Source: an uncultured virus (IMG/VR IMGVR_UViG_2681813236_000004)
Lineage: Duplodnaviria > Heunggongvirae > Uroviricota > Caudoviricetes
Length of the DNA stretch: 20,000 nucleotides
IMG/VR virus record: IMGVR_UViG_2681813236_000004
Strand: one strand, 5' to 3'
The translations under genes were made by a program, and so were the position numbers. The notes below the pieces were generated by a model. It ran no database searches and was not told where the DNA came from. It saw nothing but the letters and a program-made list of their open reading frames with translations. The first letter of the stretch is position 1. Each line of letters opens with the position of its first letter. Shown here piece by piece: positions 584-5,574 of this stretch.

Positions 584-869
584 TAACACTCCATCCTGGT
601 GTGCTGAATGTCAGATATAATCGGCATACTCAAATCACTCCTAACGATATGAGTCATCACCAGAAAATCAGGATTAATGCGCCGGACTCTTCCCGGCTGT
701 CACACCGAATCGCCAGGATGGTGAATCCCTTTACCCGAAAAACAACAAACGGTGGCTTGCACATTCCGGCTACCTGGTTCGTTGCCTGAGCTAGGGGCAA
801 GGTTCCCCCCTTTTAACGTCACCAGACCGCTAACGACGCATGTGCCAGACGCCGTGTTACAACCAAATG

Positions 870-945
870 TGGTGGCCCCTACCGGACTTGAACCGGTGAC
901 CGTGCGATTATGAGTCGCCAGCTCTAACCACTGAGCTAAAGGGCC
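870..945 (-). tRNA. trnI: tRNA-Ile2 (anticodon CAT, ileX-like, presumably lysidine-modified); Met not excluded
   Basis: Reverse complement is GGCCCTTTAGCTCAGTGGTTAGAGCTGGCGACTCATAATCGCACGGTCACCGGTTCAAGTCCGGTAGGGGCCACCA: a 76-nt cloverleaf with CT-CAT-AA loop, GTTCAA T-loop and encoded CCA. The GGCCC acceptor resembles ileX. Confidence 0.93.
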
Positions 946-2017: not shown

Positions 2018-2048
2018 CCTCTCACTCCATTATTTAACGAATAAAAAA

Positions 2049-2172
2049 GCTGCGGTGCCGGGTGCCTCCCGGTATCCTTTGGCTGGTTATCTACCGTGGA
2101 CGGGGAAACAAGGAGAAATAATGGACAGATATAACCATTTCCCCGCGTGCGCTTAGCCGCATTCACCGCAAC
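2049..2172 (-). ncRNA. Candidate tRNA-like structured RNA module 1
   Basis: Closing stem GTTGCGGTG/CACCGCAGC, 5' element AATGCGGCTAAGCGCA, 3' hairpin CCGGG-AGGCA-CCCGG, followed by a U-tract (2043-2048). Confidence 0.55.
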
Positions 2173-2332
2173 GGAAAGAGCATTCTTGGTGGACCTGTAG
2201 ATTGGGATATGAACCCGTTACAGGAGAATGCTCTTACCTGTTACGTGCTCCGTTTCGTGGAGCTAACGGCGGGTGATCAGACCGCACCAGACTGGACTTA
2301 TTTCAGCGTTATGCTCATGCCAGAGAATCAAA

Positions 2333-2432
2333 CTGTGATGGTCGGTGCTGAACTCCGACACAGGGTTGTAGCAAGCCCCGCAAAGCGCGCACTACTGTAG
2401 TTGCGGCACATCAGCCTGTGCATTCACCACAA
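2333..2432 (-). ncRNA. Candidate tRNA-like structured RNA module 2
   Basis: Closing stem TTGTGGTG/CATCACAG, 5' hairpin GCACA-GGCTGA-TGTGC, 3' T-arm-like hairpin GTCGG-AGTTCAGCA-CCGAC. Confidence 0.6.
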
Positions 2433-2515
2433 TGTTGAGAACACTGGTTGTCACGCTGCCTCGCGACATTTATTCATAGATTGGGATATGACCCCGTTAC
2501 GCCAATGTTCTCAAC

Positions 2516-2666
2516 GTTGTAGTGCCGGTTACGGTTCCGGCCAGGCCTCTTCCTCAACGGGGTGTTCTCCATACGGACTACCGTTTATTGGTCGTTCCTG
2601 CGGTTTATGTTGTGAAGCCAGATGCTTATCTTCTGGTTGCTTCAAAGAGCTGCACTTCATCACAAC
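2516..2666 (-). ncRNA. Candidate structured RNA module 3
   Basis: Closing stem GTTGTGATG/CACTACAAC, internal CCAGA..TCTGG hairpin, 3' hairpin GCCGG-AACCGTAA-CCGGC. Confidence 0.5.
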
Positions 2667-2729
2667 GGTAAGAGCACTCGATGCATTTAAGCCAAGCCCC
2701 ATAAGGGAGAATGCCCTTACCTGTTGTGC

Positions 2730-2805
2730 TGGTGCCGGTTAACGGACTCGAACCGCTGACATCCTGCTTACAAGGCAGGCGCTCTACCAACTGAGCTAAA
2801 CCGGC
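2730..2805 (-). tRNA. trnT: tRNA-Thr (TGT)
   Basis: Reverse complement is GCCGGTTTAGCTCAGTTGGTAGAGCGCCTGCCTTGTAAGCAGGATGTCAGCGGTTCGAGTCCGTTAACCGGCACCA, with anticodon arm CCTGC-CTTGTAA-GCAGG and a CCA end. Confidence 0.96.
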
Positions 2806-2807
2806 AT

Positions 2808-2883
2808 TGGCGATGGTGGATGGATTTGAACCATCGACCCGTTGATTAACAGTCAACCGCTCTAACCGCTGAGCTACACCATC
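2808..2883 (-). tRNA. trnA: tRNA-Asn (GTT)
   Basis: Reverse complement is GATGGTGTAGCTCAGCGGTTAGAGCGGTTGACTGTTAATCAACGGGTCGATGGTTCAAATCCATCCACCATCGCCA, with anticodon arm GTTGA-CTGTTAA-TCAAC and a CCA end. Confidence 0.95.
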
Positions 2884-3169
2884 ACTTGCCGGGTACGTCT
2901 CCGGCGAGGGCTTCCACCTCCGTATGCTTTTCGGCGCACCGCGCCCTGACTGCAATTCGGTAACAGGGGATGCATAATCCTGGCTTCCAGCGTGATTAGC
3001 GCCTTCAGCATGACGGGATATACCCGTAAATTCGTGGAACTGTACCCAAAGTGCTGTTAAGCACCGCTGTTACGCTGAAAAGAAGACGCAACAGGAAAGG
3101 ACGCTGACCAACAGATGGCCCCTTCTCGTTCATCTGGTTAATCACACCAGCGCCCTTACCTGTTGTGCC

Positions 3170-3340
3170 TCCCCGTTCCCTAATACACAGACGGGGACAC
3201 TCTGTGGTCGATTTTTTGACGGGGGACGACTCATACCCCGTGGCGTCTGGCTTCTTAGGCCGCTACCATCATCAGATTATCGTTTGCATTTACTTTAATG
3301 GTCAGTTTCTAAACCGCCGCAAAGTCGCTAACCATGACGA
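3170..3340 (-). ncRNA. Candidate tmRNA-like RNA (mRNA-like domain only: pseudoknot, tag frame ANDNLMMVAA*, two pseudoknots)
   Basis: Tag-like frame at 3287-3255 reads GCA AAC GAT AAT CTG ATG ATG GTA GCG GCC TAA. It is flanked by three pairable H-type pseudoknots. No tRNA-like domain was found. Confidence 0.55.
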
Positions 3341-3348
3341 AAACCCTG

Positions 3349-3374
3349 AAAAAAACGCCCACCCGAAGATGGGC
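3349..3374 (-). terminator. Intrinsic terminator
   Basis: GCCCATC-TTCG-GGTGGGC followed by GTTTTTTT on the minus strand. Confidence 0.8.
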
Positions 3375-3535
3375 AAACTGGAAGCTCGTAACGCACTTCG
3401 GCGTTGCCACTTAGGCGCATGGTCAACCTGGCAACTCGGTGGTTTGTCTGGGAGGACTAGGCCCAGCCATGCTTACCGCCGCGCCTGTCGCGGCTAACAG
3501 CTAAATCGCTCTATAAATCACGATTCATTGAGGCG

Positions 3536-3565
3536 ATATTACACTAATAAATTTATTAGAGCAAT
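3536..3565 (-). promoter_or_regulatory. Bivalent C1 repressor operator overlapping a sigma70 promoter (Op72/ban-operon-like)
   Basis: Perfect P1 C1 operator ATTGCTCTAATAAATTT at 3549-3565 (-), plus an overlapping inverted copy ATTACACTAATAAATTT at 3538-3554 (+). Promoter TTGCTC-17 bp-TAATAT on the minus strand. Overlaps the dmt stop codon. Confidence 0.88.
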
Positions 3566-5574
3566 ATACCTAAAACGTCATGAGCAACACCTCGAGTGTC
3601 CCCCTTACAAGACACAGAACGTCTGGCAAAAAGAGGTTCCACTCTGAAGCCATTGTCATGATAAAGCTCTCTGATGTTTGGCGCGCCACTGTTAGTAATG
3701 AGAACCTTTGCACCTCGGCGATGAGCATCCGTCAACAGAGACACCAGGCGTTTTTGCTCTTCAAACTTAAAGTCATGACCGGAATAGTTCGTGAATCCCT
3801 CTGTATTTGGAAGCGGTTCATATGGCGGATCGCAAAAAATGACATCTCCTTCTCCGGCAGCTTCAATCACCGCAGCAAAATCACCACATACAAACTCAGA
3901 ACGCCCTTCCGCACCAAGGAAGGCTTCCATCTCCTGCAATGGGAAATACGGAGTTTTATACTTCCCATAACCGACATTGAACTCACCGGCCTGGTTGTAA
4001 CGCGTCAATCCGTTAAAACAATGTCGGTTCAGGAACAAAAACGCCGCTGCGCGATGTAAATCATCATAGACTTGTTTGTTAAACGCATTCCGTACTGCCA
4101 GGTATCCTTCCTGTGTGTTGTAGTCCTGGAAAAACCGATGCGCCAGAGTGATAAGTGAACGTTCCTCACGTTGCAAAGTCTTGTAAAAGTTAATCAGGTC
4201 AGCATTCACATCATTTAGCAGATTTTCCTTGTATCCGGCATTCATGAAGACAGCTCCGCCACCGACAAAAGGTTCAATCAGGCGCTTCCCTTCTGGCAAA
4301 TAGCGAAAGATTTGTTCCAGAACACCAAATTTTCCACCAGCCCATTTGAATATGGACCGTTCGAATTCTGCCGCTGGTTTAACTTTTCGCTCTTTTGTTT
4401 CATTCCCTTCATTCTGCCGACATGCAGCCTTGGTAATCCGATCGCCAATCCAGCGCATTACTGGTATCGCCATACTATTGCCGATCGCTTTGTAACGCGG
4501 TCCGTCAGCTGCAAGCATCGCGGCCTCTTCTTCGCTCAAATCAGGATAGTTTTTGCGAAGGTATGCCAGTTCATCTGAAGAAACTTTTTTACGCTTTTCC
4601 GTAGGGATCAATGTATGTCCATCAGGAAAACCTTGCAGCCTTTCACATTCGACAGGGGTAAGACGGCGCATTCTACCGTCGCCGAGCAATACAATTGGTG
4701 CTTCATGGTTACATGTCAAAGTTGGTGCCGAATTATCGGTTTTTATCTCAGCCCCTCCTTGCCCATGTGCCATGGCAATTATGTTTGTATCATCGCAAGT
4801 TCTGATAGCGATGTTTGAAGTATATCTGGTAGTTTCCTTCCCCTCGCCTCTGCTCGGCGCAATATTCCGGCGCACGCCTTCGAACTCAAAAAGTACCGTT
4901 GCGGGATCGAGGTCTGTTCGAGCACTTGCGACAACAAACACGCGTCGGCGTCGTTGTGCCACTCCGAAGTATTGGGCATCAAGGATTCTCCAGGCCACTT
5001 TTCGCTGCGGTCCATAAATACAACCACACTGCGGCCACTTTGGAGCATGGCAACCGGTTTTGACATCCCACCGCCAGAACGCGTTACTTTTTCCTGATTC
5101 AGGTCGATCACCTGGTTCGAATGGCGCATCTTCTCCAGCCAATCCGGCAAGGAAACATCCGAAGGCGTTATCTGCCGATGACAAGACTCCTGGGACATTT
5201 TCCCAGACGATAACTGCTGGTTTGAGAAATGACTCAGCCCGTTTGTCGTCAATTGCATTTGCAAGCTCCACATACTTTAAAGTTAGCGCGCCACGCTCAT
5301 CATCAAGCCCACCACCTAATCCCGCGATACTGAATGCCTGACAAGGTGTTCCCCCGACGAGCACATCAGGGGATTCGATTTCCCCAGCCAGGACTTTTTT
5401 GGCAAGTTTTGTCATGTCGCCAAGGTTGGCGACATGGGGCCAGCGGTGCGCAAGAACGGCAGATGGAAAAGGCTCGATTTCAGCAAACCACGCCGGACGC
5501 ATACCCAACGGTTCCCAGGCAATACTCGCGGCTTCAATTCCACTGCAAACAGATCCATAGCACAGCTCTTTCAC
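3556..5574 (-). CDS. dmt: Bifunctional DNA methyltransferase: N-terminal C5-cytosine MTase fused to C-terminal Dam-family N6-adenine MTase
   Basis: C5-MTase motifs: SVCSGIEA (I), GGTPCQAFS (IV), ENV (VI), QRRRR (VIII), [15 protein letters not shown] (IX), YKAIGNS (X). Dam motifs: KWAGGK, EPFVGGG, DPPY. Confidence 0.95.

Follow-up and report, generated by a model that had tools for sequence, protein, structure and literature searches.

A putative tmRNA-directed RNA module in the stem-punctuated, untranslated part of the ban operon of P1-like phages

What does a P1-like phage-plasmid make of 1.5 kilobases (kb) of repressor-controlled transcript in which no ordinary gene is apparent? The question is raised by an uncultured virus of the Caudoviricetes (IMG/VR record IMGVR_UViG_2681813236_000004), from which a stretch of 20,000 nucleotides (nt), here called the window, was analyzed. 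The window is part of a P1-like phage-plasmid carrying ban, trnI, dmt, repA and parAB, and its region 2040-3540, on the minus strand, is that part of the ban operon, itself under C1 control, which is not translated. Phage P1 matches this region at 96% identity, and at least 80% of it is covered in 16 phage records and 425 plasmid records. A reading made from the letters alone, without database searches (the sequence-only reading), had described it as an array of small RNAs punctuated by processing stems. The first module of that array (3347-3170, minus strand) consists of a 5' arm antisense to host transfer-messenger RNA (tmRNA), a tmRNA resume site, a 10-codon degron frame and two covarying pseudoknots. 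This module, the tRNA-elbow-like scaffolds with kissing loops and an intrinsic terminator ahead of the array had escaped the sequence-only reading.

A start-less tag frame and an arm complementary to host tmRNA

Trans-translation is understood as the work of one RNA, or of two base-paired pieces of one gene, carrying both an acceptor and a message. An Rfam scan of the array, as the sequence-only reading had suggested, gives weak matches to permuted and alpha tmRNA at 3255-3360. Within them, 3287-3255 on the minus strand holds a resume context and the frame ANDNLMMVAA, closed by a stop and lacking a start codon; the linker and resume-site context ahead of it (3288-3315) align to the resume region of RF04321 and RF01849. 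Homologues of the module are found by BLAST in 435 phage records (E up to 0.1), with about 72% identity in Ackermannviridae and N4-like phages; over all searches they come from P1-like, N4-like, Felix O1-like and lambdoid phages, Ackermannviridae and Chaseviridae. The module is present in 670 of 5426 complete E. coli genomes, and a pattern scan adds at least 119 further viral loci.

The frame is conserved as codons. A pattern that fixed only the first three codons returns tag frames of exactly 10 codons in 126 of the 127 matches listed, ending in AA (94), VA (31) or AP (1); the sole exception, L064, bears no relation to the module and is left out of later counts, whereas L008 was included manually. 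The 33 distinct tag DNAs contain no internal stop or indel, and their codon 10 varies almost only at the third base. Every one of 71 distinct modules has an in-frame stop 3-7 codons upstream, and none has an in-frame ATG, GTG or TTG. No tag DNA among the 33 uses the UUA or UAC codon of the host tag (six encode Tyr by UAU), a hint, and only that, of avoidance. An ATG overlapping the resume codon was considered as an alternative conserved frame and rejected, since the frames that it opens differ in length, from 5 to 13 codons.

After the stop, two H-type pseudoknots (PK) in tandem can be parsed in 68 of 69 distinct regions; those of the window are a PK2-like one at 3207-3241 and a PK3-like one at 3170-3206, both on the minus strand. 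Both helices of the former change in pairs across relatives, paired changes recur in the latter, and examples are CCGA/TCGG, CCAG/CTGG, CCAA/TTGG and GTCG/CGAC. As a control, shuffled sequences match the double pseudoknot in 0 of 60 cases for the window, L007 and L032, and in 2 of 60 for L016. The edges of the module recur as well. Immediately upstream of the arm stands a stem right arm in 31 of 62 distinct contexts, a promoter-like site in 15, the P1 terminator in 10 and something else in 6; the last pseudoknot is usually followed by a stem left arm, and in HK633 the module lies between two family stems in the late leader. By these boundaries the module would behave as a discrete RNA of about 160-190 nt.

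The arm itself (3316-3347, minus strand) is complementary to nt 73-106 of E. coli tmRNA, which comprise the 3' strand of pseudoknot 1, the resume region and the first tag codons, with a computed duplex of -36.0 kcal/mol. It is carried by 126 of the 127 listed modules, and the E. coli ssrA RNA was the only target against which arms were run. Relatives' arms choose the same site. For 36 of 37 distinct arms the best duplex falls at nt ~69-107, with the best site on nt 80-100, which is the conserved complementarity to one target site that marks a trans-acting antisense RNA, and 31 of the 37 are equalled by at most 5 of 100 dinucleotide shuffles. Host positions 98-104 find a partner in all 42 distinct 5' segments compared, positions 86-91 in 40-42 of them and positions 75-79 in 41-42 (two of these three blocks served as anchors, and part of their invariance is built in); variant bases in the arms are mostly G-U wobbles. 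Among 348-349 control windows from the phage genomes, 0, 0, 0 and 1 pair as well as the arms of four relatives.

A pattern that ignores arm and linker altogether gives a sharper division. It recovers 73 distinct upstream regions, of which 53 have no tmRNA call by ARAGORN and all 53 have the antisense core, 15 are called permuted tmRNA and none of the 15 has it, and five have neither. In the Felix O1-like phage EC6 and the Chaseviridae Erwinia phage Faunus, arms and linkers are rewritten and still pair at tmRNA nt 76-108, with 6 and 7 of 200 shuffles, respectively, pairing as well. The host site hardly varies, with 26 variants among 120 host loci that are for the most part enterobacterial to judge by their titles, which is why one arm fits most hosts. 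In all 42 segments the phage resume codon stands 29-31 nt past the last block of pairing, and in the two diverged phages ~15-18 nt past it.

The segment 3347-3294 had also been tried as a tmRNA pseudoknot 1 of the module's own. A fold-back upstream of the resume codon can be drawn, yet the same bases pair with host tmRNA, and after the duplex, tally and arm-blind pattern tests the assignment was replaced by the antisense arm.

Comparison with known tmRNAs, and how the module may act

The module is not a tmRNA by membership, because it fails the test for an acceptor domain. The hallmark motifs of a tRNA-like domain are absent near 126 of 126 modules and are found in the E. coli control; ARAGORN at default settings calls that control and no module; and RF00023, run on five whole records, matches model positions ~83-140 without the tRNA-like domain. 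What the module does have, as a tmRNA should, is a resume site, a start-less tag frame with a hydrophobic, Ala-containing end, and pseudoknots 3' of the tag. No smpB was found in the same number of whole records (5 of 5), so SmpB would have to come from the host. A phage-encoded acceptor half acting in trans was sought and discarded: there is none in the window or in the G000 array, and the matches obtained are, apart from the E. coli control, mostly the T arms of ordinary tRNA-like genes with arbitrary distant partners.

The nearest relatives are the coding pieces of permuted tmRNA (RF04321, RF01849, RF01850), which share the resume context, an Ala-Asn-Asp/Glu start, a hydrophobic tag ending in Ala and a pseudoknot after the stop; permuted phage tmRNAs even have near-identical tags, e.g. 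ANDEQFALAA. Unlike them, the module has no 5' acceptor strand, D-loop or acceptor piece, and its 5' end is the host-complementary arm, immediately preceded in 56 of 62 contexts by a promoter-like site, stem or terminator. Its scores against permuted and alpha tmRNA (25.3 bits for RF04321, and 33.5) stay below the gathering score of 47. With the one-piece tmRNA of E. coli (ssrA, RF00023) it shares a tag of equal length, 10 codons, that is chemically similar and stands ahead of a hairpin and pseudoknots; it differs in lacking the tRNA-like domain, helix 2 and the fourth pseudoknot, and the host molecule is its predicted target, not its orthologue. Several viral contigs (L613, L614, L622 and others) encode permuted tmRNAs whose tags, again such as ANDEQFALAA, are near those of the acceptor-less modules, and these permuted tmRNAs are a plausible source of the module.

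Mycobacteriophage DS6A offers the mirror image. Its tmRNA consists of the tRNA-like domain only and, in the available text of two tmRNA surveys, is reported to inhibit host tmRNA (PMC4131195, PMC11915505). From what those texts contain, both RNAs are phage-borne tmRNA fragments thought to act on host trans-translation, DS6A keeping the acceptor without the message and the module keeping the message without the acceptor and adding an antisense arm; the acceptor-only DS6A RNA is the only such phage fragment that they mention. The literature searched (subscription journals and the tables of the tmRNA Website lay outside the search) describes no message-only or anti-tmRNA phage RNA, and as far as can be found the module is an RNA of a kind not described so far.

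On tmRNA, the codon at which translation resumes is set by SmpB together with the bases immediately upstream of it. The course of events we favor starts with ribonuclease (RNase) III, which, to judge by homology, would very likely cut each stem of the array on both arms and free the loop cargos and the inter-stem modules, while RNase P and other tRNA-maturing nucleases would free the tRNAs. The first module, at ~190 nt, would then anneal by its 5' arm to nt ~73-106 of host tmRNA, a step in which computation and conservation give us at least as much confidence; the modeled duplex, which ends next to pseudoknot 1, hides the resume codon of the host molecule and the first codons of its tag. Tethered there, the module would, with distinctly less assurance although still probably, offer its own resume site, tag frame, stop and two pseudoknots, and a ribosome that the host's alanyl-tRNA-like domain and SmpB have rescued would finish on the phage template and add A-ANDNLMMVAA. 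An RNA that did no more than block the host message would leave rescued ribosomes stranded, and its frame would have no need to be conserved; taking both halves of the module together, an exchange of template in trans is the simplest reading. What the analysis shows is the sequence, its conservation and covariation, the lack of an acceptor domain and a computed complementarity. We infer cleavage, the duplex in the cell, translation of the tag and any purpose, and we give the whole chain a probability of about 0.55.

ClpX reads the C-terminal alanines of the tag, and SspB its N-terminal part. The benefit might lie in a ribosome rescue that goes on, now steered by the phage, after infection has left the host message part cut or hard to decode, a tentative suggestion, though the likeliest of three, for which the phage tRNAs of the array, likewise replacing host tRNAs, would be an analogy. 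It is somewhat more doubtful that tagged proteins are re-routed among proteases or adaptors, and rather unlikely that the net effect is a dampening of tagging. Taken more widely, the proposal that P1 and other enterobacterial phages encode a guide-tethered replacement message re-templating host tagging, with other cargos of the array mimicking tRNA pieces as decoys against RNA-cutting defences, falls a little short of even odds.

Several points weigh against template exchange. Six of the 37 arms exceed 5 of 100 shuffles, and that of L006 favors another site; the window's own arm is only moderately specific, being equalled by 5 of 100 shuffles and, among 348 control windows, by 10. The near-invariance of the host target, as far as sequences go, leaves covariation between phage arm and host no variation in which to appear. 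The arm can also pair within its own RNA by folding back on the linker (when cofolded with host tmRNA, it leaves its own fold-back, pairs with the host molecule and frees the phage resume region). The double pseudoknot of L006 is matched by 16 of 60 shuffles and does not stand above them, and L013 fails the parse. ARAGORN run with relaxed settings (-ps90) joins the tag to adjacent tRNA-like pieces in three loci (eight pseudogene-level calls). In P1-like phages a terminator precedes the module. Fourteen RNA-labelled runs contain two thirds of the region's sequence words; of the four runs inspected out of 24 listed, three are assembled contigs, from which RNA ends, strand and abundance are not readable, and the one of raw reads does not cover the stretch. 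Every phage tag is still degron-like, with no obvious benefit, and the loading of a message domain in trans is without a precedent known to us.

Of the other explanations, an antisense inhibitor pure and simple survives best, and we think it unlikely. It would mask the host resume region or trigger decay of tmRNA, and tag and pseudoknots would be a rarely translated, inherited scaffold; the duplex does span the host resume codon, and the inhibition reported for the DS6A derivative in the two surveys cited above would be a parallel. It leaves unaccounted for the third-position variation, fixed length, retained stop and degron-like ending that run across six phage groups, codon-like features that are not expected of an untranslated scaffold. 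An action independent of tmRNA is less probable again. Here the module would enter stalled or vacant ribosomes directly, or its 5' part, as an internal pseudoknot, would start translation at the Ala codon and yield a free decapeptide acting as a decoy for SspB and ClpXP, and the complementarity would be incidental. There is indeed no start codon, and the 5' part folds on the linker with some paired variation in alignment A1; against this stand the diverged arms that still pair with the host after the fold-back linker has been lost, and the antisense core present in 53 modules and in none of the 15 genuine permuted tmRNAs.

If template exchange in trans is true, a separate phage RNA that docks on host tmRNA shows that the message domain is exchangeable in trans, and phages gain a direct handle on ribosome rescue and on tagging bound for ClpXP. 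The element, present without annotation in P1, in P7 and in phage records by the hundred, might be turned into a programmable tool for tagging.

The punctuating stems and their relatives in lambda and Qin

Four related stems, each enclosing a loop cargo, punctuate the minus strand as the sequence-only reading had it: S1 (3086-3168), the bulged S2 (2659-2729), S3 (2425-2524) and S4 (2167-2244). A repeat search returns the inverted repeats 3084-3106/3148-3170, 2425-2447/2502-2524 and 2173-2186/2225-2238 and the arm repeat families D1-D3, and S2 emerges on folding. Folded alone, with boundaries chosen after inspection of the stems, the four reach z = -5.04, -5.39, -7.32 and -7.87, and for each none of 200 shuffles is as stable; in the ensemble of the whole 1461-nt transcript, native arm pairs amount to 16.6-19.9 expected base pairs each. 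Five places in the 63.6-kb record resemble the left-arm consensus, and the three with a partner arm are S1, S2 and S4 (S3 is too diverged for this filter). A switch in which the right arm of one stem pairs with the left arm of the next had been envisaged as well. It receives 0.0 expected pairs in the intact transcript, and around a module re-pairing is possible only for the outer 5-9 bases of the arms.

By comparison across phages, the stems belong to a widespread family of hairpins with swappable loops. Among 133 sequences examined, 116 contain 212 stems, which reduce to 62 distinct arm pairs and 90 distinct loop cargos. The check on conservation and covariation that had been proposed came out well: 11 of 12 upper-helix columns are paired in 59-62 of the 62, with two-sided changes in several, figures biased upward by a family filter that itself demanded pairing. 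In the tRNA islands and late leaders of phages, such stems are a simple marker for small-RNA cargos that are processed. We found no account of the stem family as such in the literature searched, from which, as above, subscription journals were absent.

One member is the hairpin of the lambda late leader (44787-44864; L132:388-463), whose arms are identical to the family consensus; unlike the array of the window, lambda has a single stem with another loop cargo. The lambda late transcript reportedly contains RNase III sites (Daniels et al. 1988), and cuts that we take to lie at +209 and +270 are compatible with a 2-nt stagger in this stem. The sequence that follows the lambda stem resembles a stem cargo of P7 and D6. 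The top of the lambda stem, ~61 nt, may equal LPR2, a ~63-nt lytic small RNA near lambda 6S RNA according to the available part of its report (10.1101/2024.10.31.621285).

A second, diverged member is the dicBF stem of prophage Qin, which aligns to the family with a similar fold (z = -3.6). There RNase III generates the 5' end of a 190-nt DicF, as stated in the accessible text of bioRxiv 10.1101/2023.04.14.536235, and by our own arithmetic 190 nt back from the DicF terminator falls within ~5 nt of the cut predicted in the right arm of the Qin stem. On that description the Qin dicBF leader, like that of the window, is a repressor-controlled polycistronic RNA with a stem of the family, at which RNase III cuts in Qin and would cut in the window. 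The two also share a leader domain and a module ahead of the next gene. They differ in that the 53-nt DicF is replaced in the window (no Rfam match to RF00039, and the alignment diverges past the shared leader domain), and that four stems compare with one, with tRNAs and the tmRNA-directed module besides. Going by these alignments, the array by itself would be a processed leader of the dicBF type.

The stems thereby present what is expected of an RNase III substrate, a conserved double-stranded stem of at least 12 base pairs (the size requirement as given in the portion of PMC8708148 available), homologous to a mapped site through the lambda and Qin alignments, and their processing by RNase III is likely. 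The small-RNA array released by RNase III that the sequence-only reading had postulated is accordingly upheld by homology and comparison, as regards modular make-up and stem type, and not by end-mapping. A left-arm cut near 3159/3158 in S1, by analogy with the geometry of the family, would set the 3' end of the tmRNA-directed RNA. A hairpin at 3400-3438 was dropped as an RNase III site; it sits inside the domain that belongs to the Qin 190-nt DicF precursor.

Modules come and go between stems, as a comparison across genomes had been expected to reveal. The 32 P1-type loci show 17 presence patterns, with gain, loss and swap at the arms (some of the patterns being due to locus ends or to divergence below the 80% coverage cut). 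L005 has an additional stem and scaffold; P1 and D6 have a different, T-arm-like S2 cargo with compensated stem changes; and in L030 (near 2050-2200, plus strand) the S1 cargo, the following module and tRNA-Asn are deleted, with the junction inside a shared left arm. Because modules and cargos are swapped at the arms, and because of this junction, the arms also serve as recombination points. In the Ackermannviridae and N4-like phages, 2-kb unannotated RNA islands surround the module (L006:1420-3520, L007:1100-3450, L008) and hold many long stems of related design and tRNA-like pieces.

The stems might instead be mainly signals for antitermination or attenuation, by boxA-type Nus loading or fold switches, with the modules forming a cis-acting leader that is never released. 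This is quite improbable, if a little less so than coding on the opposite strand (see below). Such stems are frequent in phage leaders (lambda, HK633), there is a terminator at 3375-3350, and S2 and S4 have right arms that agree with the boxA of the sequence-only reading at 7-8 of 12 bases. However, all four stems lie downstream of that terminator, where a boxA would be expected single-stranded and upstream of it, and the stem homologous to them in Qin coincides with an RNase III site already published. The sequence-only reading had itself offered NusB/NusE loading at boxA-like right arms as an alternative or additional role; by hand count the right arms match 5, 7, 6 and 8 of 12 boxA bases, poorly in S1 and S3, they are paired in the ensemble, and changes in them are compensated in the partner arm, so that this role is not borne out.

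Other cargos, the opposite strand and the surrounding operon

Several of the remaining cargos resemble pieces of tRNA. The scaffold at 2434-2332 (minus strand; tRNA-elbow-like) has a closing stem, a D-like and a T-like hairpin with complementary, kissing loops, and a variable cargo between these two hairpins, and it is known in 19 distinct versions; the loop pairs (GCTGA/TCAGC, ACTGA/TCAGT, GTCGA/TCGAC) change together in L002, L010 and L080. Its nested fold alone is not unusual (z = -0.31), and the scaffold has no Rfam match. Outer bases from the right arm of S2 and the left arm of S3 close the module at 2519-2664 (minus strand), which ends in a T-arm-like hairpin and is weakly folded (z = -0.12). 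T-arm-like hairpins or a near-cloverleaf also occur as stem cargos elsewhere (L001:4634-4706, minus strand; L016, L034, L082), and a staggered cut would leave excised stem tops ending in CC-3', like an unfinished tRNA end.

The cargos of S3 (2483-2495) and S4 (2204-2216), on the minus strand, contain a hairpin with CAU in a 7-nt loop above three G-C pairs, resembling the anticodon arm of the initiator tRNA metZ (tRNA-fMet). Two copies in the window compare with 0.01 expected, for a pattern chosen after the fact, and other phages carry this hairpin in long stems too. When the loop sequence is not fixed, CAU is kept in 7 of 9 distinct loops within long stems, while the flanks vary and U33 and A37 are not constant; a metagenome scan for the hairpin gave mostly chance matches. 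VapC is a type of initiator-tRNA nuclease, and the hairpins are possibly a decoy for nucleases of this kind; pairing to start codons is the alternative.

The last module (2049-2172, minus strand) is STnc100/PasD-like without belonging to that family: RF02076 gives 33 bits (E 1.9e-4) against a gathering score of 47, with resemblance at both ends, and by eye its ends match those of the module ahead of dicB in Qin. The available text of the STnc100/PasD prophage small-RNA paper (bioRxiv 10.64898/2026.05.13.724894) contains no occurrence of RNase III, RNase P or tmRNA. The remaining minus-strand stretches, delimited by folding, are three small hairpins at 2245-2331, which also occur in unrelated Klebsiella and Cronobacter phages, and one or more structured modules at 2884-3085, nearly confined to P1-like phages (20 of 25 phage matches are P1-like at 97% or more). 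Between S2 and the latter lie the two tRNAs expected in the array, tRNA-Thr(TGT), trnT, at 2730-2805 and tRNA-Asn(GTT), trnA, at 2808-2883, both called on the minus strand and both annotated in P1.

The sequence-only reading had called the array protein-free, and this has to be qualified for two frames on the opposite strand and for the conserved, start-less tag frame at 3287-3255. P1 annotates plp and upl there, corresponding to open reading frames 2401-2742 and 2209-2400 (plus strand) of the window. In the plp-like frame, substitutions at codon positions 1/2/3 number 15/17/16, with two stops and indels, where the coding control dmt has a clear 6/6/30; plp is probably not a real gene. The upl-like frame, with 3/8/9 and no indels, may or may not be a gene. 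That coding on the opposite strand is the point of the region, with RNA structure secondary, is very improbable: annotation of plp and upl exists for RCS47 as well as for P1, in the latter with predicted promoters, and the upl-like alleles are free of indels and stops, but the plp-like frame has the flat substitutions, stops and indels just given, upl is missing from P7 and D6, and none of the four array reading frames scanned attains the Pfam cut-off.

The annotation of P1 in this region runs from P1ban/P2ban, the operator Obanab and a 'dicF-like region' through trnA and trnT to tciABC, trnI and ban. In the window, the C1 double operator (Obanab/Op72ab) and the P1ban/P2ban promoters that start the ban operon are at 3536-3581 (minus strand), the inverted repeat I4 agreeing with the annotation transferred from P1 and with the operator and promoter that had been read at the head of the array. 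A structured leader domain follows at 3395-3500 (minus strand), homologous to the 5' part of the Qin 190-nt DicF precursor (alignment A2); it overlaps the 'dicF-like region' of P1, and the 53-nt DicF sequence itself is not kept. An intrinsic terminator, a UUCG hairpin with a U run, comes next at 3350-3375 (minus strand). The array beyond it would need read-through, which we infer because ban lies downstream of its annotated promoters; an internal promoter is not indicated, one consensus match against 3.8 expected being below chance. Behind the STnc100-like module, a small membrane protein gene (78 amino acids, 1781-2017) and an SPFH/Band 7 lipoprotein gene (973-1800), together 973-2017 on the minus strand, replace the tciABC of P1, and trnI and ban follow.

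Some variations around the array may be added. Between trnI and ban, ~280 non-coding bases (window 590-870) hold several inverted repeats. An IncY plasmid locus (L009) has neither the leader nor the tmRNA-directed module, and carries a TnpB-family gene between dmt and the array (L009:2877-4046). In the window, dmt (3556-5574) is the 672-amino-acid, P7-type form, shorter than in P1.

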